Shown one piece after another: positions 1,851 through 39,306 of a stretch of DNA of 64,000 nt (its first letter is position 1; the number at the start of each line of letters is the position of its first letter). Below the pieces are notes generated by a model. That model searched no databases. It was not told where the DNA came from and saw only the letters and a program-made list of their open reading frames with translations. The stretch spans positions 662,508 through 726,507 of the forward strand of contig JAHQJS010000004.1 of assembly GCA_019057385.1 (NCBI GenBank). The letters are read 5' to 3'. Both the position numbers and the translations under genes were made by a program. The DNA comes from Candidatus Borrarchaeum weybense. GTDB lineage: Archaea; Asgardarchaeota; Sifarchaeia; Borrarchaeales; Borrarchaeaceae.

Positions 1851-2312
1851 ATGGGTGAATACATAGACGATTTATTTAGTGAGATTCAGACTAGCCCCTC
1901 AAAGATGGAAGAGGTGGTTCAGGCAATTAATACCATTCTTGAGAATTTCATTAACGTTGTGTTCAAGGCTGTTGAGAGTCTTAGTAATGAAGTTGCAGGA
2001 ATTAAATCAGAATTTAGACAATCGCTCAATAATCTGAACACTAAAATGCAATCAATAGAAGGCAGGATGTCGTTAATGAGAACAGCAGGTCCAGCAGCAC
2101 CAATGGGACCAACATCAACTGGTTTACCACCACCTACGACACCAGGTCCTTCAGAGCCTTTTCTCACTCCCCCTCCTACGGCAGCAGGTCCTGGAGGACC
2201 TGGAGGACCAGAATCCCCACCACCGGTAACTGGAGCTACACTACGCATGCAACTCAACTCAGAGTTAAAAAAAGCCTTTTCAAGAATAAAAGGCGGCGGC
2301 GCAGAGGAATAG
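1851..2312 (+). CDS. Hypothetical protein: N-terminal coiled coil, Pro-rich linker, C-terminal WH2-like helix
   Basis: GAGG upstream of ATG; heptad N-terminus, LPPPTTP/LTPPPT/SPPPV tracts, ending LRMQLNSELKKAFSRIK. Confidence 0.7.
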   Translation: MGEYIDDLFSEIQTSPSKMEEVVQAINTILENFINVVFKAVESLSNEVAGIKSEFRQSLNNLNTKMQSIEGRMSLMRTAGPAAPMGPTSTGLPPPTTPGPSEPFLTPPPTAAGPGGPGGPESPPPVTGATLRMQLNSELKKAFSRIKGGGAEE

Positions 2313-2327
2313 AATTCCTTTATGAGA

Positions 2328-2957
2328 TCAATTTTCTTTTTTCAATTTCTTAAGTGCAATTTCTACATATGTTGTATCGATACGATCTTTTTCCGAAAAT
2401 CCAAGCCGTTTTGCATAATTCATCAGATCCTTTTCGAGTTCAATAACACTAATATCTTCAGGTAGTTCACTTTCTAAACTAACCTGTAAGAATGATCCCA
2501 TAGGGATTTCTTTGTCTTCATGTAATAATGTTACTTTCTCATCGAACTCAATTTCAATTTCACTTTCAGCAATTCTATATCGTGTTCGCACTTTACGAAA
2601 TGCTACCAGAACTTCATATCCTAATTTTTCTAAAATGGTACGTAAATCTTCTGCTTGATCTACAGGAATATCTATCGAATGATCCTCGCGTAAGTCAGTT
2701 TCTCTAGTTGGTCTAGATCCTTTCCAAGTCCATTGGCAGTAACTTAATTCCTGTAATGGTGTATATTCTAATCTAATTCTTAGCCGTTCATCGTTTGTGT
2801 ACAGTTTTCTTTGTCCGACAACATCGTAGTAATAATCAAATTGTATTACATCTTTTGTTTGCTCAAAACCAAATTTATGAAGTTGTCCCTTTATTTCCTT
2901 AATTTTTCCGTTAGCAGCAAGCTTAATCTCGAATTCTTTGAAAGTCATTTTAATCAC
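2328..2957 (-). CDS. CYTH-domain protein (class IV adenylate cyclase/triphosphate tunnel family)
   Basis: N-terminal EFEIK (ExExK), QFDYYY, RLRIR, KVRTRY. Confidence 0.85.
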   Translation of the reverse strand: MIKMTFKEFEIKLAANGKIKEIKGQLHKFGFEQTKDVIQFDYYYDVVGQRKLYTNDERLRIRLEYTPLQELSYCQWTWKGSRPTRETDLREDHSIDIPVDQAEDLRTILEKLGYEVLVAFRKVRTRYRIAESEIEIEFDEKVTLLHEDKEIPMGSFLQVSLESELPEDISVIELEKDLMNYAKRLGFSEKDRIDTTYVEIALKKLKKEN

Positions 2958-3127
2958 TTTGTCAAATAATATTGCAGTTTTTCAACTGATTTTTCTAGTA
3001 TCAAGGTTCTGAAATCAGGATTTCTTTTTTAATGGAGAACGATGACGATATATCTAATAAATATGTATTAAGCACAAGTCTGTATTTGTTTTAAGATGCT
3101 AACCAAAGGATTATTTGGAGGTTTTAT

Positions 3128-4033
3128 ATGTCTAAAAGAAAGGTTCATCGAGTTTCCATAAATGATGTAGTATTTGCTACGGATAAAAATAATCCACCTG
3201 TGCTACATATTTCATCGGGAGACACAGTCATCTTTGAGTGCAAGGACGCATTTAATCAAGGAATACAAAGTTCCACCGATTTACCGACAGATTTGGACTT
3301 CGAAAGGGTAAATCCTGCAACGGGTCCCGTTTATATTGAAGGAGCAGAACCTGGTGACACGTTAGAGGTGCATATAGAGAAAATCGAGATGGCGGCTCAA
3401 GGAGCCTGTTGCATAGTTCCTGGCTTTGGTTTTCTTGCTCCAGAATTTCCTGATGCATGGACAAAGATAATTCCTATTAAAAACGGTTATGCTGAGTTTG
3501 GCAAAGGAATACGAATCCCGATTGATCCCTTTCCAGGAACCTTAGTAGTAGCCCCTCCTGGTGAAGGCGAAGGTACGTTGGTTCCTAAAGATCATGGAGG
3601 AAACATGGATACGAAAGCGATTAAAGAAGGAACTGTGCTTTACTTACCTGTTTTCGTTCCTGGGGCGCTATTCGGAGTTGGGGATGTACATGCCGTACAA
3701 GGAGACGGTGAGATATGTGGTACTGCAGTGGAGGTCGATGCCGAAGTCACGATTAGACTTCTAGTGAACAAACAAAAGAAGATCACACGACCACAAATTG
3801 AGACACCTGACTTCTTTATGACTACTGCTTATGCTGAAACGACAGATGAAGCAGTGAAGATAGCTCTGCGTGATATGATAGACTGGCTTGAAGCAGAAAA
3901 AGGACTTACACGGCAGGAGGCTTATGCACTCTGTAGCTGTGCCGTTGATATGCGGATATCGCAATTGGTAGATATAACCCCTGGAGTTCGTGTAGTTCTT
4001 CCAAAAGTCATATTCATCGAATCAGAATCTTAG
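3128..4033 (+). CDS. Acetamidase/formamidase family protein
   Basis: NPATGPVYIEGAEPGD, HGGNMD, GDVHAVQGDGEICGTAVE. Confidence 0.92.
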   Translation: MSKRKVHRVSINDVVFATDKNNPPVLHISSGDTVIFECKDAFNQGIQSSTDLPTDLDFERVNPATGPVYIEGAEPGDTLEVHIEKIEMAAQGACCIVPGFGFLAPEFPDAWTKIIPIKNGYAEFGKGIRIPIDPFPGTLVVAPPGEGEGTLVPKDHGGNMDTKAIKEGTVLYLPVFVPGALFGVGDVHAVQGDGEICGTAVEVDAEVTIRLLVNKQKKITRPQIETPDFFMTTAYAETTDEAVKIALRDMIDWLEAEKGLTRQEAYALCSCAVDMRISQLVDITPGVRVVLPKVIFIESES

Positions 4034-31871: not shown

Positions 31872-32984
31872 TCATTTTCTCTTTTTCTTCTTAAATTCCT
31901 TAACGATTTCGATATACTCTTTTACGGGAATGACATTTGGCTTCCGACGAAACCCTGCAGGTATGGTTGCATCACAACGAGAACAGAGGTTTGAACTTTT
32001 CTGCCAATCCTTGAATTCATCAGCATGTGCTGGATATCGACAATGAGGACAAAGAACAACGCCACGATCCTTATCTTCGGATTTAAAATCTTGAAAGCAA
32101 AATATGCATTTGAAATCTTCCAATGTCAGTATCCCTGCTTTCGGTTTGAGTTTTTCGAATTTTTCACTCATTTTAGGTTTTGTTTTCCGTTTAGTTTTCT
32201 TCCTAGTTGGAGTTGTAACTGCTGTTGTTGTTTTCTTGGTAGTTGATCTTTTCTTCTTGGTGGTTGGTGAGGTACTACGAGTTCTTGTCGTTGTTGAGGT
32301 GGTAGTTGTGATGGTAGTTGATCTTCCACCCCTAGGAGTTGTTGACGAACTGCCTGTCGTGCTACCGGTACTACTACTTTCAGGTATGTCTCTGCGAATA
32401 ACTGTTGAAATGTCAGGGATTGCAGATTTTCCACCGAATATCCCAAATACGATCAATAAAAGCAATGAGATAATACCCAGTAGCCAAAACATTAAACCAG
32501 AGAAGAATTCCAACGCGAAATAAAATCCAAGGATTGTAATTAAAAAACTTAGAAGAATGCCAAATTTGCGGGCACTAAATGATTTCTGTCCAATATAAAC
32601 CACTGCATATCTTTGGAGACAAGAATAAAGTATGAATAAGCCATACATAAGATACGGAACTGCAAAAATGAATGTCCACGGACTCAATTGTACTGTTGAA
32701 GTCTCCAGAAGATTCCCTCTGAGTAAACCTGTAGAACGTCCCCACAAACTGTAAAGTATTCCTATAAACAGAGGACCAAAAACAAAGAACGAAGTATTAT
32801 GCGGTGAGCGAAATTCACGAGCATATTTTACCCTAATTACGAATGCTAAGGTAAAACATATCCAACATCCAACAGCTAGCCAAGAAACGAACACATCTGT
32901 TGAGTTTTCAATTCCCATGCCATGTACAACTGCAGTAATTAGGCTCGCCAGTAATATGATGGCATACCATCGCTTTTGTACCAA
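31872..32984 (-). CDS. Multi-pass membrane protein with Thr/Lys-rich linker and C-terminal RING-variant zinc finger (putative E3)
   Basis: About 6 TM helices, T/K-rich tract, CIFC...VVLCPHCRYPAHADEF...CSRC; last gene of the ubiquitin operon. Confidence 0.75.
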   Translation of the reverse strand: MVQKRWYAIILLASLITAVVHGMGIENSTDVFVSWLAVGCWICFTLAFVIRVKYAREFRSPHNTSFFVFGPLFIGILYSLWGRSTGLLRGNLLETSTVQLSPWTFIFAVPYLMYGLFILYSCLQRYAVVYIGQKSFSARKFGILLSFLITILGFYFALEFFSGLMFWLLGIISLLLLIVFGIFGGKSAIPDISTVIRRDIPESSSTGSTTGSSSTTPRGGRSTTITTTTSTTTRTRSTSPTTKKKRSTTKKTTTAVTTPTRKKTKRKTKPKMSEKFEKLKPKAGILTLEDFKCIFCFQDFKSEDKDRGVVLCPHCRYPAHADEFKDWQKSSNLCSRCDATIPAGFRRKPNVIPVKEYIEIVKEFKKKKRK

Positions 32985-33024
32985 TATTCCTTTACCACCA
33001 TTCTTCTAATGAATTATTTCTTAA

Positions 33025-33801
33025 TTAATCATCATCATATTCAAGATAGAGTGCTTTTCCCTCTGATATCGGGTTTATAAACTCCAAAAGTTCCGGTAGT
33101 AAACGCATATCCAACTGGCCTTTAACATCAAAAGGCACCTCAAACCACGAACGTGATTTTAAATCCGCCTTGAAGATCTTGAAGCCTAATGATTTGCCGT
33201 CAATTAAGTAAGGGTCAATTACGAGAGCAAGCGATTTAGGCCATAGTTTCTGGTATCTGATCTGGGTATCGAAATCATCCGTGCTCATAAAAAGTCCATA
33301 AGATGGGTGAGAATGATACCAACCGCAAATGAATAAGTTGTTCTTTTTGATATCGTTGAAAGCCCTCACGTAATTTTTATAATCCTTGATTTCAGCAGAA
33401 ACGGCTGATCCATGTCCCATCGGATAAGCGTCTTCTATTTGAACTATAAGACCGTTATCATCTAATTTACCTGCTAGAAGTCCAATAACTTCTATCCATT
33501 GATTCTTTGGAATTCTGGAATTGGCATATTTGAATGAATGGCTTGCAATTTTGAGAATCGTCGTGACCGAAATGGTTATTGTTTCCTTATCTCTTACAGG
33601 TTCAGTAGTGACAAGTTCTTGAGTTGATATTTCTTCAGTCTCTAATTCATCATCAGGTCGGACAGTAATCTCTTCTCGGAGTTCCTCGGACATCAATAGT
33701 TCACTGCGGATTTCTTCAAGAAGTTGTTTTTTTAATTCTTCTTTGATTTTCTTTTTCAAGTCTTCTAAATCCAAAGCGTCTTTTGGTCCGTCACTATTCA
33801 T
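33025..33801 (-). CDS. JAMM/MPN+ metallo-isopeptidase (Rpn11/CSN5-like)
   Basis: EVIGLL, GWYHSHPSYGLFMSTDD (HxH-x7-S-x2-D), ALVIDP. Confidence 0.93.
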   Translation of the reverse strand: MNSDGPKDALDLEDLKKKIKEELKKQLLEEIRSELLMSEELREEITVRPDDELETEEISTQELVTTEPVRDKETITISVTTILKIASHSFKYANSRIPKNQWIEVIGLLAGKLDDNGLIVQIEDAYPMGHGSAVSAEIKDYKNYVRAFNDIKKNNLFICGWYHSHPSYGLFMSTDDFDTQIRYQKLWPKSLALVIDPYLIDGKSLGFKIFKADLKSRSWFEVPFDVKGQLDMRLLPELLEFINPISEGKALYLEYDDD

Positions 33802-33812
33802 TTAAATCGCCT

Positions 33813-34349
33813 CTACCATTTTTTGTTGGCAAATTTTTTGGTCAAATGTTTTACTTTTTTATTAAAGTTCTTTGGGTCATTTATAAGCTCAAGTGCAGCC
33901 TTCTTGTTAAAAACGTCTGTTGGATTAACATAATACCCCTTTGTATTCAACATTGCACGAATTGCTTGTATAACAGTTACAATGGTTTTTGATGGACTCC
34001 ACCCGCCTTTTTTCCCAACATAATTCGGATCTATAAGACCAAGACAGATATTTCGCTGTCCTGGATATTCGTGAGGTTTAGGCCAAAAATTCGGATGCCA
34101 AATACCAGTATGCATGCGCATAAATGGAGGGTGACGTGGATAATCTGGAGGGAATTTAATTTCAAGTTTGAATAACCCACCTTGATATGGGGTTCCCTTG
34201 GGACCAATTAGCGTGATAGCAAGGTGATCTATGCTTTTTTGACCTGGAAACGGTTTTAATTGCGCTATTACACCTTCTTTCAGCATTTTTTTAAGTGCTG
34301 CATTATCTTGCGAAATTCGACTACTTCTAACACTCATTTTTTTCACCAT
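33813..34349 (-). CDS. Ubiquitin-conjugating enzyme E2 (UBC fold)
   Basis: GPKGTPYQGGLFKLEIKFPPDYP, WHPN, NICLGLI catalytic Cys, WSPS. Confidence 0.95.
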   Translation of the reverse strand: MVKKMSVRSSRISQDNAALKKMLKEGVIAQLKPFPGQKSIDHLAITLIGPKGTPYQGGLFKLEIKFPPDYPRHPPFMRMHTGIWHPNFWPKPHEYPGQRNICLGLIDPNYVGKKGGWSPSKTIVTVIQAIRAMLNTKGYYVNPTDVFNKKAALELINDPKNFNKKVKHLTKKFANKKW

Positions 34350-34420
34350 TTATAATAATCATATCTGTTTTTCTACGCTGTCAAAACATCAAATAGAGAC
34401 TTTTTACAACCATTTGCAAT

Positions 34421-35653
34421 TTAACTGATATGTAACGTTATGAAAAGTTCCCCATTTTTAAATCCCGCAGCAGTAACGAGTTCAAGATCTCTTAATTCGT
34501 TTTGATAAGGCGTACCATCTTGATCTACTTCTAATACATTGTCAAAATCCATTATTGTCAAAATAGGCTCCATTTCAGGGTCTATTACAAACCCCTTTTT
34601 AATAAGTGAACTAATTATTTCGCTGCAAGGGTCAGCACGGCTCATTGTGATATCAATTCTTCGAACATTATCACCGCACTGTCTGCATTGGGGATTTCGA
34701 TTCTTTCCTATTGAATATAACTTCATAGTCATTGCATTGAATATTTTGTATGATTTAACCGGTTCACCAAGACTTTTATTTCCTTTTATTGTGTGTAAGA
34801 TTTTGATAACTTCGTGAGACTGGAGGGCACTAATCACGGCGTTCATAGTTATAATGCCAGGATCATGTATATCGATAAGCTGAACGATTTCGGCTCGTGA
34901 AAACAACGGCAGGAAATTATGGCGTTCTGCGAGTTCATTCGCTTCTTTCTGAATAAAACTGATGTGTTCAATGTTTTTAGGATCTGCTTCGTCAAGCTCG
35001 AACTGTTCCATAAGGGATAGATATGCTTTAAAAACGCAATGGACTCTTTTTCGTGGAACTCCAACGACCGTACACGCTGCCATGTCATCCATTTCAGCCT
35101 CAGGCATTGGGTAGCACTCAAAACATGCGTTTTCATAGGGGAAAATCGTGTAAACATGACCATGAAATCCCACAACACCTCCATCAACGAGTGGTTTATT
35201 GAAGCGCACACACTGTGCATTCAGGTTAAACCGGGCATTCATTGAGTCCAGTCCACCGACAACAACATCCGCTGCGTCATAGATTGCGGGATCAAGTCTC
35301 TCAAGTGAGGTGTGGTAACCCTTGATCTTGATGTTCCGATTGATCTCGGTTAATTTTTTAGCGGCGACTGTAGCTTTAGGTTCCCCCATTTTGGCACCAA
35401 CAAAGAGGATCTGTCGATTTAAGTTTGAATGTTCGATTACATCCAAGTCAATGAGGTCTAGATGCCCGATACCCAGCATGGCGAGATTTTTGGCGATCTC
35501 ACAACCGAGACCGCCCACCCCTGCAATCAGAACTCGTGAATTCTTAATAATTTTCTGATCCCAACCATCGAGCCTGAATTGCCGATCGTATAATTCCCGT
35601 TCTTCTGAAGTTAAATCTTCACTAAAGAAATCTGAATTTTCCAATTTTTTCAC
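34421..35653 (-). CDS. Ubiquitin-activating enzyme E1 (ThiF/UBA family, Uba3-like)
   Basis: YDRQ, GVGGLGCE, DLDVIEHSNLNRQ, CFEC/CRQC Zn pairs, AACT catalytic Cys. Confidence 0.93.
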   Translation of the reverse strand: MKKLENSDFFSEDLTSEERELYDRQFRLDGWDQKIIKNSRVLIAGVGGLGCEIAKNLAMLGIGHLDLIDLDVIEHSNLNRQILFVGAKMGEPKATVAAKKLTEINRNIKIKGYHTSLERLDPAIYDAADVVVGGLDSMNARFNLNAQCVRFNKPLVDGGVVGFHGHVYTIFPYENACFECYPMPEAEMDDMAACTVVGVPRKRVHCVFKAYLSLMEQFELDEADPKNIEHISFIQKEANELAERHNFLPLFSRAEIVQLIDIHDPGIITMNAVISALQSHEVIKILHTIKGNKSLGEPVKSYKIFNAMTMKLYSIGKNRNPQCRQCGDNVRRIDITMSRADPCSEIISSLIKKGFVIDPEMEPILTIMDFDNVLEVDQDGTPYQNELRDLELVTAAGFKNGELFITLHIS

Positions 35654-35672
35654 CAGTCTCTATTTTGATTGA

Positions 35673-35695
35673 AAAGTACGAAATATTCGTACTTT
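35673..35695. promoter_or_regulatory. 10-bp inverted repeat between the Ubl and E1 genes
   Basis: AAAGTACGAA-ATA-TTCGTACTTT. Confidence 0.45.
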
Positions 35696-35768
35696 CTTGA
35701 GAAGATATAAAAAAATGTTTAAAAGAAAGTGCTCTGTAGTTTTTTGAAAAATGAAGATTGAATTAAAT

Positions 35769-36107
35769 TCAACCTGCTGTGCTTGCTGGAATTAAGAGGA
35801 CGGTATCTCCGTCGTTGATCTTATACTCAACTAAAGCACTATCCTCATCCATCGTAACGCCGTCATGACTTAAATGAAAGTCTGTTGGGGTCAATCCAAA
35901 CATGTTAGAAACCGTTTCTTTAACGTCTCCCACTCGATACCCGGTATCTACAAGCAACTTCTGCTTCTTCTCACCGGGACCAATTGTTGACATGAAGTAG
36001 ACGTTGACTTTCTCCCCTTCAACAATGGGGCTTGATGGCGTTTTTGAACTGATATCTTCGGGCTTTTTCTCTTCTGGTTCAAGCTCTTCATCAAATTCTT
36101 CAGACAT
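35769..36107 (-). CDS. Ubiquitin-like protein with acidic N-terminal extension, ending STAG
   Basis: Beta-grasp pattern RVGDVKETVS...HLSHDGVTMDEDSALVEYKINDGDTVLLIP; directly upstream of E1. Confidence 0.9.
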   Translation of the reverse strand: MSEEFDEELEPEEKKPEDISSKTPSSPIVEGEKVNVYFMSTIGPGEKKQKLLVDTGYRVGDVKETVSNMFGLTPTDFHLSHDGVTMDEDSALVEYKINDGDTVLLIPASTAG

Positions 36108-36334
36108 TTTATACCACCTTATTTTGTAACACAGCCCAAGAAGAAAATGGCACCTAGATACTTAAATATTTTTAAATTCCTAAAATTTAGCATTTGAAAA
36201 TTCACAACTACTTGAAGTTCCCTCTTACAACTCAATACTCTAGAACTCTCGAAAATGATTTCAATTTCACAAAACACATAGAACGATATTAAATCAATCG
36301 TTATATTAACAAGTCTAGTTATGATAAAGAGAGC

Positions 36335-37522
36335 GTGACCCCATTGACTGATGATACTCCTCCCAAAACCCAAATCAGCGAGAAAGTACCAGATAAAAAG
36401 GTACTTGAGGAACTTAAGAAAGAAAGGGAAAAACTGGAAGAAGAGCGTAAAAAGTTAGAAAGGGAACGAAATGAATTGGAAAAAAGTATCAAGAAGTTTG
36501 AAAGTTACCACGTAACTATCGAAGATCTTGAAAAAAAGAGAAAAGATCGTGAGAATGAACTTAAAGATCTTTTAAAAGAAAGGGATCGCTTAAGAAGTGA
36601 GTTGGACACGCTTAAGAATGGGGTTTTATTAGAGAAAAAGCGGATTTCCGATGAAAAAAGATACATTAATATTGAGAAGGAGAAGATCCACAAACAAAAT
36701 GAAGACCTTGCCAAAGAACTTAGAAAGCAAAATGAAGAACTTGCTAAGGAAATCAACGCGAAGAATACCGAATTACACAACATTGAAGCAAGAAGTCGGA
36801 AAGAGGAGGATCGTATACGCGAGTTAAGAAAAGAAATCTCACGGTTGGAAAATAGCAGTAATTCTTTACAAAACAAAATTAACAACTTAGAAAACGAAAA
36901 AAATCGGCTTGAAACCGATAAGAAACGATTAGAACAAGATAGGAAGAATTTAAGAGACGAAGTTGATAAAATTAAAAAAGATTCTGAACTTGAGAAGAAG
37001 CGGATTTCTGACGAGAAAAAACAAATTGATAAAGATAAAGAGAAACTTCAGAAGAAAGACAAAGAGCTAGATCGGAATGAAAAAGCATTATGGCGCAAGA
37101 AAAAACAAATTGATGACGACATACAAGATCTAGAACGACATCGAAGAAAAGAGGATGATCGACTTCGTGAATTGAATAAAACGACATCAAATTTAGAAAA
37201 CAATAGGCAATCTTTGCAACGAGAAATTAGAGATTTAAAAGATGAAATAAAAAAATTGAATAATGAGAAAAAGCGATTAGAACAAGACAGAAAGCAAGCA
37301 TTAGAAGACTTAAAACGACAAGAAGCGGAAGTTCAAAAGGAAAAACGCGAAATAGAACATGAAAAGAGAAAGATTAGAGAAGAAAAAAATAGCATCAAAA
37401 ATGAACGGGAAAAATTGAAACGAGAAAAAGAAAGTCTGGAAAGAGAACGAAAGAGACTAGAAGAAGAAATTAGAAAACTGAAGAGTATACCAAAAGAAAA
37501 AATAAGGACTAAAACTCCTTGA
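36335..37522 (+). CDS. Long charged coiled-coil protein with an internal duplication of about 120 aa
   Basis: E/K/R-rich heptads; LEKKRISDEK...RKE(E/D)DR.REL...KKRLEQDRK occurs twice. Confidence 0.85.
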   Translation: MTPLTDDTPPKTQISEKVPDKKVLEELKKEREKLEEERKKLERERNELEKSIKKFESYHVTIEDLEKKRKDRENELKDLLKERDRLRSELDTLKNGVLLEKKRISDEKRYINIEKEKIHKQNEDLAKELRKQNEELAKEINAKNTELHNIEARSRKEEDRIRELRKEISRLENSSNSLQNKINNLENEKNRLETDKKRLEQDRKNLRDEVDKIKKDSELEKKRISDEKKQIDKDKEKLQKKDKELDRNEKALWRKKKQIDDDIQDLERHRRKEDDRLRELNKTTSNLENNRQSLQREIRDLKDEIKKLNNEKKRLEQDRKQALEDLKRQEAEVQKEKREIEHEKRKIREEKNSIKNEREKLKREKESLERERKRLEEEIRKLKSIPKEKIRTKTP

Positions 37523-37563
37523 AAGTTATTTTTATGACAGTTATTTGACAAAAAGCAAGTGGT

Positions 37564-39306
37564 TTAACCCGCTCTACTTGACGGGATTAACAGGATTGTA
37601 TCTCCATCCTTTATATTGAACTCTTCAAAAATACTGTTTTCATCCAATGTAATTCCGTTATAAGATAAATGAACTCCTATAGGGTTCAGTCCAAATGAAT
37701 TCGACACAGTCTCCTTGATATCATTCACTTTGTGATCGAGATTAATGAGTAATTTTTGTTTCTTTTCGCCAGGTCCAATTGTGGACATGAAGTAGATGTT
37801 AATTTGTTTGTCTGTGACATCGTTTTCTATGAGTTTATCGATCTTTTCGCCAGCGATAGGTTCCGTAATTTCAGAAGTTATCATTGCAGCTGTTTCATCC
37901 GTAGGAACTTCTTCTATTGCTGACGGCAGGATGATTTCTTCGACCATTTCTGAGTCTTCAACGACTTTTTCAAGTTTAGCCTCTTCTTCTGCATGTAATT
38001 CCTTTCTTTTAGCCTGCTGTTCCTCTACTTTCTGCCTAAAGTAATTAGTGACTGTTTCAGTCATAGCATCTTGTATATCATCTTCGTCTATTGTTTTATG
38101 GTCGGTTACCAGCCATCGTGCATTAAATTGAATCACATTATCTTCGAATTCGTCAGGACATATCAGTAAAAATTCACCAGCAGAGAGTTTAGGTAATTGA
38201 GCTACTATGTCATTGGCTTTCTCTGGATTCAAACTTTTTAATAGGTGATGCACTTTTGAGATGTCCTGTTTTGTCATCATACGTCCTAATACCCAGGTGT
38301 TTGCTTGTGCCATCGCTTTGTAGTCAATGTCTGCAGGATTTTGAGTTGCAATCAGATTGCTTACGCCATATTTCCGTGCTTGTTTCATAAGCAGTTGTAA
38401 AGAATTCTTAGGGGGAGGATTATAAGGATGTGGTGGCAAATAAGGTGCAATTTCATCAACATAGAAAATGAGTTGAGGATCATTCTTTGGATGGCGAAGC
38501 ATCCATTCATATAATTGTCGGCTTAATGTTGCGATGAAGAAGTGTTTATCGGCTTCCTTATTCAGCGTGTTAAGATAGATAATGTTTACAGGGGTCTTTC
38601 CAGCCTCTACAGGCGTCAAGAAGGTATCGATATCCAGAGCTATACCCATTTCGAAAATCAGTTTAGTTGCTCCGGTCGCCAAAAATCGAATCTTTTTTGC
38701 TAGCTTTCGAATTTCTCTCGTATCGATCACACCAGAAGATCTTTCTTTGAGCTGTTCAGGAGGATTTTCCACGCATTCAGCTAAAGTCTTTAAATGGTCT
38801 AAAGGTGACCCTTGTTCCCTATAATAATCCAAAAGTTGAAAGAGATATGTCTGTGCTGCTTTCCCGGTATCATTTTCAGGATCGTAGCCTAGGAAACGAA
38901 TTAAAGTTACTGCTATATTGTCTACTGCCTTTATGATATCTTCAACATCCATTTCCTCTTCTGAAAATTTTAACGGGTTTATACATAAAGGAATACCTTT
39001 TGATGATGCAGGAGTCCAGATACGAACTTCTGCATTTTCCCAATACTCTTCAGCAAATTCCAGGGGAGTTCCCATCTCTTGAAGTTTCTCTGGATCACCA
39101 AGTAGCCCCAGACTTGCAATATCTCCTTGTGGGTCGATTACTAGGGTAGGAATTTCCTGTCGTGTAGCTTCTTCCACTAATACCTTACAAAAAACAGTCT
39201 TTCCAGACCCGGAGGCGCCTAGGGTACAAATATGACGTTTTAAGGTCTTTTTCTTAAGTTCGACAAATTCCTCTGTTGCTTTATTTTTACCTAAAACTAT
39301 ACTCAC
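37564..39306 (-). CDS. HerA/FtsK-superfamily (DUF87/DUF853-like) ATPase fused to a C-terminal ubiquitin-like domain ending SRAG
   Basis: Walker A GASGSGKT, IDPQGD, Walker B FYVDE, ARKYG, ATQNP; last ~80 aa share YFMSTIGPGEKKQKLL and GDT.LLIP with the free Ubl. Confidence 0.9.
   Translation of the reverse strand: MSIVLGKNKATEEFVELKKKTLKRHICTLGASGSGKTVFCKVLVEEATRQEIPTLVIDPQGDIASLGLLGDPEKLQEMGTPLEFAEEYWENAEVRIWTPASSKGIPLCINPLKFSEEEMDVEDIIKAVDNIAVTLIRFLGYDPENDTGKAAQTYLFQLLDYYREQGSPLDHLKTLAECVENPPEQLKERSSGVIDTREIRKLAKKIRFLATGATKLIFEMGIALDIDTFLTPVEAGKTPVNIIYLNTLNKEADKHFFIATLSRQLYEWMLRHPKNDPQLIFYVDEIAPYLPPHPYNPPPKNSLQLLMKQARKYGVSNLIATQNPADIDYKAMAQANTWVLGRMMTKQDISKVHHLLKSLNPEKANDIVAQLPKLSAGEFLLICPDEFEDNVIQFNARWLVTDHKTIDEDDIQDAMTETVTNYFRQKVEEQQAKRKELHAEEEAKLEKVVEDSEMVEEIILPSAIEEVPTDETAAMITSEITEPIAGEKIDKLIENDVTDKQINIYFMSTIGPGEKKQKLLINLDHKVNDIKETVSNSFGLNPIGVHLSYNGITLDENSIFEEFNIKDGDTILLIPSSRAG

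Follow-up and report, generated by a model that had tools for sequence, protein, structure and literature searches.

Can an Asgard archaeon ligate an entire motor enzyme to other proteins by way of a ubiquitin-like domain (Ubl) borne at the enzyme's own C-terminus? The question is raised by a locus of Candidatus Borrarchaeum weybense in which the gene for an ATPase ending in a Ubl lies next to the genes of a ubiquitin-type conjugation cascade. The locus is part of a window of 64,000 nucleotides (the whole stretch of DNA analysed, G000:C4:662508-726507, contig JAHQJS010000004.1) within an Asgard genome of 4.18 Mb in 8 contigs. Six proteins are encoded on the minus strand at positions 31872-39306 of the window: the ATPase-Ubl fusion, a free Ubl, an activating enzyme (E1), a conjugating enzyme (E2), a JAMM isopeptidase, and a protein with transmembrane (TM) helices and a RING-like finger (hereafter the TM-RING protein). 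Judging from the sequences, we regard the prospects as evenly balanced that the ATPase is charged by the neighbouring E1 and ligated to targets via its own Ubl. The same anatomy, all on one strand, had been described in a first-pass annotation of this DNA, and it was borne out when open reading frame positions and translations were checked and domains were assigned via Pfam with the family cut-offs. The features are the following (aa, amino acids).

37564-39306, minus strand: ATPase-Ubl fusion gene, 580 aa; Pfam DUF87 (48.3 bits) and HerA_C (49.8 bits), both above cut-off
38062..39306, minus strand: ATPase domain of the fusion, aa 1-415; DUF853/YjgR-type, HerA-FtsK P-loop superfamily
37816..38061, minus strand: linker of the fusion, aa 416-497; begins as a long helix and continues as an acidic disordered tether that varies in length
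37567..37815, minus strand: fused Ubl, a beta-grasp, aa 498-580; ends in ...LLIPSSRAG, with the stop codon (37564-37566) directly after
36335..37522, plus strand: coiled-coil protein, Lys/Glu-rich, 395 aa; coiled-coil Pfam matches sub-threshold only
35769..36107, minus strand: free Ubl, 112 aa; weak Pfam ubiquitin match (24.4 bits), ends in LLIPASTAG-stop
34421..35653, minus strand: E1, single-chain, 410 aa; Pfam ThiF, E 1.5e-60
33813..34349, minus strand: E2, UBC fold, 178 aa; Pfam UQ_con, E 6e-26
33025..33801, minus strand: JAMM/MPN+ isopeptidase, 258 aa; Pfam JAB, E 8e-13
31872..32984, minus strand: TM-RING membrane protein, 370 aa; without a Pfam family

The last 84 aa of the fusion align ungapped to the free Ubl with 61% identity (E 4e-36), which upholds the paralogy claimed at first pass. 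The exact stretch that the two Ubls had been said to share is also there in the translations, as a 16-mer (YFMSTIGPGEKKQKLL) identical in both, and so are the tails of the form LLIP-x-S-x-A-G-stop, which read LLIPASTAG-stop in the free and LLIPSSRAG-stop in the fused Ubl. The Pfam ubiquitin model matches residues 516-573 of the fusion at 24.5 bits, just under the cut-off of 25.4, and the profile of the Ubl family matched ubiquitin in the PDB. All 18 of the 18 family-invariant residues, including P79, S81, A83, and G84, are retained in the fused copy. No third copy of this Ubl type was found in the genome, which holds two only (free and fused).

Homologues of the fusion were collected from a large protein collection and grouped into clusters (n=20, identity 74-88%). 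The tail ...LLIP[AS]S[TR]AG is kept in 20/20 of them, with the stop directly after the Gly in 18 and an extension of 7-8 aa in the other two. The terminal Gly, whose conservation had been singled out at first pass as critical, is accordingly found as ...AG in every cluster, at synonymous divergence up to about 1.2. The extended members (P0001 and P0019, homologues of 37564-39306) run past ...SSRAG by 7-8 residues (LTTSCLIE), an arrangement that resembles a pro-Ubl, for which trimming by the JAMM enzyme would be needed. There are two fused tail types, SSRAG in the window and its nearest kin and ASTAG in the rest, among them G004 and Candidatus Borrarchaeum yapensis, the nearest named relative, whose contig JAEOSF010000047 has the same locus with a fusion 79% identical; the Ubl tree is too short to tell a single origin of the two types from recombination with the free Ubl. 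Pairwise Nei-Gojobori estimates of the ratio of nonsynonymous to synonymous divergence (dN/dS), taken at dS 0.3-1.2, gave 0.08-0.11 for the ATPase region, 0.25-0.38 for the linker (the length of which varies by about 40 aa among orthologues), and 0.10-0.31 for the fused Ubl, which is therefore maintained by selection.

The motor part of the protein has readable ATPase motifs (Walker A GASGSGKT, Walker B FYVDE), and its sequence matches in the PDB are HerA and the 'HerA like helicase YjgR' (11kk_A, over residues 21-382). A Foldseek search with the AlphaFold2 (AF2) model of the ATPase retrieved HerA, TrwB, and DndH at E about 5e-14. From the Pfam, Foldseek, and YjgR matches taken together, the ATPase therefore belongs to the DUF853/YjgR family within the HerA-FtsK superfamily; we found no paper describing the function of the DUF853 family. 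The AF2 model of the whole fusion, computed as a monomer, has a mean predicted local distance difference test score (pLDDT) of 73, with about 80 in the ATPase part, 25-40 in the disordered, acidic tether (residues 449-498), and about 85 in a confident fused Ubl (residues 501-575) with the beta-grasp pattern of secondary structure. In this model the Ubl stands at the tip of the long disordered tether, unpacked against the ATPase. A complex prediction of the E1 with the fused Ubl scored 0.02 against a mark of 0.32 and, being made without controls, counts neither for nor against their interaction.

The free Ubl consists of an acidic N-terminal tail with an SKTP motif followed by the beta-grasp, and its orthologues in distant Asgard lineages retain STIGPGEKK and LLIPASTAG-stop. 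The tail of the modifier is Ala-Gly, not Gly-Gly, in every orthologue, with the terminal Gly exposed. The E1 has an adenylation domain and shows GVGGLGCE, two CxxC pairs, and Cys194 within AACTVVG, Cys194 and the CxxC pairs being invariant; its nearest solved relatives are Uba1, SAE2, and UBA3 (the last aligned over residues 35-336), and its C-terminal domain could be a ubiquitin-fold domain. The E2 carries HPN...NICLG with the catalytic Cys and matches Ubc15, Ubc1, Ubc13, and Ubc9 in the PDB, while the JAMM protein, with an acidic N-terminal extension, has its motif HSHPSYGLFMSTDD intact (HxHx7Sx2D). A modifier with a terminal Gly, an E1 with its Cys, an E2 with HPN and Cys, and a JAMM motif, which are among the marks of eukaryote-like archaeal ubiquitylation, are thus present. 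A reading as a UFM1-like system, considered for the single terminal Gly and the membrane link, was dropped, the E2 matching Pfam UQ_con and not UFC1 and the Ubl profile matching ubiquitin; a reading as a sulfur carrier of the MoaD/ThiS kind was dropped as well, given the E2, RING-like protein, and JAMM in the operon.

The TM-RING protein is made up of about 6 TM helices, an 80-aa disordered linker rich in Ser/Thr/Lys, and a cytosolic RING-like finger of the pattern C-x2-C-x15-C-x2-C-x4-H-x-D-x11-C-x2-C, in which the seven Cys/His ligands, the Asp, and Trp327 are invariant in 40 homologues. Its C-terminal 95 aa match Prok-RING_1 and zf-RING_2 below threshold (E 0.005-0.009), and the canonical small RING protein of the same genome is likewise below both Pfam RING cut-offs. 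The AF2 finger has a pLDDT of 80-90. When the whole TM-RING model was compared with the PDB by Foldseek, nothing was retrieved at E <= 0.001; the top of the list is mostly RING/U-box, including HRD1, at E of at least 0.036, and only this make-up of the list is suggestive. The finger is likely, though not proven, to be a RING, and the membrane protein is a candidate ligase (E3). The profile and structure checks that had been called for at first pass thus supported the DUF87/HerA and Ubl folds, whereas the RING models stayed below the Pfam threshold.

The cascade operon is found far beyond Borrarchaeum. The order Ubl (about 110 aa, always ending in LLIPASTAG-stop) - E1 - E2 - JAB - TM-RING is kept in Promethearchaeota, Helarchaeota, Thorarchaeota, and Hodarchaeota, and also in metagenome-assembled genomes (MAGs) labelled 'Odinarchaeota', Sifarchaeum, Promethearchaeum sp., and the cultured Lokiarchaeum ossiferum (complete genome), usually with the divergent coiled-coil gene upstream. 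Identities across these lineages reach 58-83% for the E1 and 69-88% for the E2, and the TM-RING protein was found in 27 of 121 sampled Asgard genomes, in 5 of 26 families. The operon is old. Its neighbours are housekeeping genes (pheA, Sec61beta plus ribophorin, carbamoyl-phosphate synthase, and FtsZ). In a complete Promethearchaeota genome (CP070831, L049:4254-6484) its position is immediately downstream of Sec61beta and a ribophorin-I-like gene, and in Helarchaeota (L050) it adjoins a rhomboid protease and an Arf-like GTPase, so that both have membrane/secretory neighbours.

From the domain identities, motifs, paralogy, tail conservation, purifying selection, and distribution of the fusion, together with the other C-terminal Ubl fusions (see below), we infer a series of biochemical steps, and with them an E3 role for the membrane protein, a hexameric motor, and a set of targets. 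In one Borrarchaeum-like genus, a DUF853/YjgR ATPase has acquired a duplicate of the Ubl at its C-terminus, via an acidic disordered tether of ~80 aa, in place of the differing C-terminal modules that this ATPase family bears elsewhere. The E1 would adenylate the exposed terminal Gly of the ATPase's Ubl and form a thioester with it, the Ubl would be handed to the E2 Cys, and, with the membrane RING protein, it would be linked to lysines of targets at the membrane. The motor, probably hexameric, would thus be covalently tethered there, in a manner reversible by the JAMM enzyme.

The ATPase is not the only protein that ends in this modifier. An exhaustive search with the fused Ubl retrieved the same Ubl family, with the tail intact, at the extreme C-terminus of zinc-ribbon proteins (255-330 aa), Roadblock/LC7-like proteins, CDC48_N-VWA proteins (565-570 aa), and proteins with unassigned N-terminal domains, and the family also has tandem genes of two and three Ubl copies (P0242, P0244). 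About 6 kb separate one zinc-ribbon-Ubl gene from an operon in which a second free Ubl is also encoded. The family also occurs as an internal or integral domain without a terminal Gly, in TM-Ubl proteins ending in ...ALIPSRKRNN or ...ALIPSRNKKD, and P0301 and P0386 likewise have no AG. The contrast between these Gly-less integral versions and the fusions ending in AG is the best in silico argument that the Ala-Gly of the ATPase is used, and it suggests as much. Whether one conserved membrane-associated cascade ligates whole Ubl-ended proteins of all these kinds (motor ATPase, CDC48_N-VWA, Roadblock, zinc-ribbon) in part of Asgard is a wider proposal that we put forward tentatively, considering it somewhat more apt to fail than to hold.

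A few of these genes may be placed more exactly. In the Asgard MAG GCA_041305965.1, a CDC48_N-VWA-Ubl gene (L056:265-1977, plus strand; 570 aa, tail ...LLIPASHAGKHKPF) stands tail-to-tail with the TM-RING (1981-3108, minus strand) and JAB (3174-4004, minus strand) genes of the same operon type, and its product is thus a second large protein that bears the operon's Ubl. In several lineages the operon is adjoined by Gly-less TM-Ubl genes together with another free Ubl (about 125 aa), as at L055:14602-15396 and L051:5056-5850 (both minus strand), and further tblastn matches of the TM-Ubl family were seen in L063, L074, L076, and L094. A TopoVI-A/Spo11 homologue with an N-terminal ubiquitin/SUMO-like domain is encoded at L046:343-1734 (minus strand), that is, at about 515.4-516.8 kb of G000:C6 (Pfam TOP6A-Spo11_Toprim, E 2e-62; Rad60-SLD/ubiquitin over residues 9-78). 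Across the window (35769-36107, minus strand), L049, L050, L051, L055, and L057, the S-K-T-P motif, sometimes doubled, precedes the beta-grasp in free Ubls and in the linkers of zinc-ribbon-Ubl and Roadblock-Ubl fusions; it is absent from the ATPase-Ubl linker. The motif might provide chains with an acceptor lysine or be phosphorylated.

Several observations weigh against ligation of the ATPase by this cascade. The coiled-coil gene on the plus strand intervenes between the ATPase-Ubl gene and the Ubl gene, divergent from the latter and convergent with the former, and because of this opposite-strand gene co-transcription of the ATPase-Ubl gene with the cascade is excluded; the ATPase thus adjoins the operon without belonging to it. 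At first pass the ATPase had been placed upstream on the same strand, which was right as to the strand but underplayed the coiled-coil gene and hence the separate transcription unit. Linkage to the operon in other genomes, the lack of which had been named at first pass as grounds for refutation, is also only partial. In the window, G004, L004, and L052/L059, four contexts in all, the fusion adjoins the operon in one common order (flavin reductase - fusion - coiled coil - Ubl - E1 - E2 - JAB - TM-RING - pheA), but it lies elsewhere in three (L001, L002/L054, and G002), where it sits between Meth_synt_2 and HMGL-like genes away from the operon. In G002 (76% complete, fusion present) the operon Ubl, E1, E2, and TM-RING were searched for and not found. 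The fused Ubl of the window forms a long branch in the Ubl tree, and its tail reads SSRAG where that of the free Ubl reads ASTAG, a difference that might alter recognition by the E1. Furthermore, the fusion occurs in only 3-4 of 400 Asgard genomes, all of them of the Borrarchaeum-like genus g1 (carriers G000, G002, and G004, with a match in G001 cut by a contig end). Finally, on a 1.5-kb metagenome contig (L058:301-690, plus strand) an SSRAG Ubl with part of the linker forms a stand-alone gene of 129 aa, 94% identical, and no ATPase is encoded in the 300 bp upstream of it; either this form is naturally split or truncated, or the DNA was rearranged.

DUF853 ATPases as such are present in 290 of the 400 genomes, with a match that extends through the Ubl only in genus g1, and the nearest non-fused relatives (about 50% identity, ~700 aa) end in an unrelated ~250-aa domain or in zinc ribbons. 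The fusion is thus a narrow, genus-level novelty, young compared with the old operon. As to L001, its fusion (MFX1519023) and a 70%-identical TM-RING protein (MFX1521816) have NCBI accessions 2,793 apart, a spacing that hints at a single MAG holding both and is not proof of it. In L004, at the syntenic locus of a relative, the flavin reductase and ATPase-Ubl genes are separated by the insertion of an IS605 OrfB/Cas12f-like (TnpB) gene (L004:8558-9943).

What else could a Ubl at this place be doing? It may never be conjugated and instead have a non-covalent part in docking or regulation, as do the UBLs of Rad23/Dsk2 or YukD near an FtsK-like ATPase, either recruiting the ATPase to a Ubl receptor, the E1/E2/JAMM enzymes, or the membrane RING protein, or gating it. 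We judge this unlikely, but a serious contender. It has in its favour the integral Ubl of the same genome at the N-terminus of TopoVI-A/Spo11, the Gly-less TM-Ubl proteins of this very family next to the operon, the unconjugated state of YukD in spite of its tie to an FtsK-like ATPase (PMC1779556), the subclade in which the fusion is unlinked from the operon (with G002, where the operon went undetected), and the other, apparently non-catalytic C-terminal modules that DUF853 relatives bear at the same site. Docking, however, needs no ...AG exposed immediately before a stop, yet all 20 clusters have retained one, as have independent fusions to other proteins, whereas the clearly integral versions of the same Ubl are without it; the placing of the Ubl in the model, on a long disordered tether and unpacked against the ATPase, likewise speaks against this reading. 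Conjugation of the ATPase-Ubl by another E1/E2 pair of the genome, with the adjacency a leftover of the duplication, has in our estimate a small chance. Four E1s of ThiF type and four E2s of UBC type are encoded in the genome, including an E2 (153 aa) and E1 (344 aa) together at C4:215.5-216.8 kb, a pair that recurs in each of the other four genomes of the genus, even in G002, where the operon was not found. Against such a pair, the fused Ubl descends from that of the operon, whose family-specific invariant residues and tail it retains, the other ubiquitin system of the genome has a Ubl ending in ...TEGGNI, and other fusions of this Ubl adjoin this operon type.

HerA ATPases and sets of E1, E2, and JAB are common in bacterial defence systems, and the PADLOC models for HerA, mad8, and E1-E2 match here at homology level, so that a HerA-type effector armed by conjugation might be envisaged, of the kind of type II cyclic oligonucleotide-based antiphage signalling systems (CBASS), Bil, or Sir2-HerA. 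An antiviral role had indeed been listed among the possibilities at first pass. We hold it to be a slight chance, because the operon stands among housekeeping neighbours and no PADLOC system is matched: PADLOC has no model for the Ubl, JAB, or TM-RING protein, and no known system architecture fits. Its gene order is moreover conserved across distant Asgard lineages at the E1 and E2 identities given above, and the DUF853 ATPases are widespread and apparently inherited vertically. Slighter still is the chance that the fusion came about by neutral accident or serves as a Ubl reservoir, the Ubl being functionless on the ATPase or released from it. The narrow distribution, the stand-alone 129-aa gene of fused type on L058, and the tandem poly-Ubl genes would all suit such an origin, but the fused Ubl is under purifying selection across dS about 1, the alignment has no conserved ...AG cleavage site upstream of it, and JAMM enzymes of the Rpn11 type cut after, not before, a Ubl (PMC5654768).

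Ligation of the ATPase through its own Ubl, if it occurs, can be set beside several described systems. Archaeal ubiquitylation operons (ubiquitin, E1, E2, small RING, and Rpn11 in Caldiarchaeum subterraneum; the ubiquitin clusters of Asgard; PMC5654768, PMC6043591) likewise cluster a modifier, a single-chain E1, a UBC E2, a RING-type finger (a candidate one in the window), and a JAMM enzyme. In contrast to them, the modifier here, with an acidic tail at its N-terminus, ends in Ala-Gly and requires no trimming, a 6-TM protein carries the RING-like finger, whose ligands are C4-H-D-C2, and a second copy of the modifier is fused to a 500-aa ATPase. In type II CBASS (PMC10097602, PMC10449767) Cap2 activates the C-terminus of an entire enzyme, which is ligated to targets and released by the JAB protein Cap3, as may be proposed here from the sequences. 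Cap2, a relative of Atg7, combines E2 and E1 in one fusion, the CD-NTase lacks a beta-grasp, and the system serves bacterial defence without a RING (PMC10097602, PMC10449767), whereas E1 and E2 are separate and eukaryote-like here, with a cargo enzyme that bears a complete Ubl; neither a fused E2-E1 nor a CD-NTase or effector was found at the locus, where the PADLOC E1-E2 matches are of homology level only. The Bub/Bil Ubls (bioRxiv 10.1101/2024.11.21.623966; PMC11601596) share the plan of a domain followed by a C-terminal beta-grasp, with the modifier bringing cargo. Their N-terminal parts are disordered, coiled-coil, DUF1508, or an extra beta-grasp, with no enzyme or motor among them (same sources), and these bacterial stress/defence operons use other types of E1 and E2, the E1 here having a single ThiF domain and being UBA3-like; no DUF6527 is present at the locus.

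A ubiquitin-like protein tied to an FtsK-HerA ATPase at the membrane is also seen in type VII secretion, where YukD goes with the FtsK-like ATPase EssC/YukA (PMC1779556), although YukD is separate or membrane-fused, has no conjugatable C-terminus, remains unconjugated, and lacks E1/E2 partners (PMC1779556). The DUF853/YjgR HerA-like ATPases (PDB 11kk; Pfam PF05872) share the ATPase family, and differ in that only the Borrarchaeum-like group has the Ubl end. From integral, non-conjugated UBL proteins the fusion differs in having its Ubl at the extreme C-terminus, with ...AG-stop in 18/20 clusters. We found no paper on a HerA/DUF853-Ubl fusion, on C-terminal Asgard fusions of this Ubl, or on this operon and its membrane RING-like protein. 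The statement made at first pass that no described system has this architecture stands in that respect, but there are conceptual precedents in the Bub/Bil Ubls with N-terminal domains and in CBASS Cap2.

Were the ATPase truly ligated, Asgard ubiquitin-type chemistry would attach effectors (a motor, adaptors, regulators) covalently and reversibly to their targets. To our knowledge, such attachment of effectors is not known from eukaryotic ubiquitin systems and is foreshadowed only by CBASS and some Bub/Bil Ubls. Should the wider proposal of one cascade for many Ubl-ended proteins be true, it would amount to a reversible enzymatic layer of protein-to-protein ligation in the closest prokaryotic relatives of eukaryotes. 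The module itself (coiled coil, Ala-Gly Ubl, E1, E2, JAMM, and 6-TM RING-like protein) is distinct from the Gly-Gly ubiquitin cluster linked to ESCRT, and since it is present in the cultured Lokiarchaeum ossiferum and in Promethearchaeum, its core is testable at the bench. A candidate membrane-embedded RING ligase with a dedicated E1 and E2 also bears on the origin of membrane ubiquitylation of the MARCH type or of the type seen in endoplasmic-reticulum-associated degradation.

Apart from the module of the window, the genome has a canonical cluster with a small RING (127 aa), a ubiquitin ending in ...TRTEGGNI, and a 140-aa JAB (L045:1014-2245, plus strand, equal to about 124.2-125.4 kb of G000:C4), with a 249-aa E2-like gene about 1.5 kb beyond it. 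With this RING-Ub(GG)-JAB cluster and the further E1/E2 genes present, the module of the window is therefore a separate, parallel system. Its coiled-coil protein is a candidate sixth member or substrate. The coiled-coil gene, with the N-terminal motif DDTPPKxQISEK, keeps the same position and orientation upstream of the Ubl at L004:11823-13358, L052:3890-5599, and L050:5467-6645 (Helarchaeota), its product varies from 393 to 570 aa among relatives through internal repeats, and tblastn gave matches in Lokiarchaeum ossiferum and others, with scores that are partly compositional. A second DUF853-type ATPase paralogue, 38% identical, is encoded ~28 kb past the end of the window (G000:C4:754755-756086, minus strand); its open frame is 635 aa long and carries no Ubl, and it has orthologues in G004 and G005.

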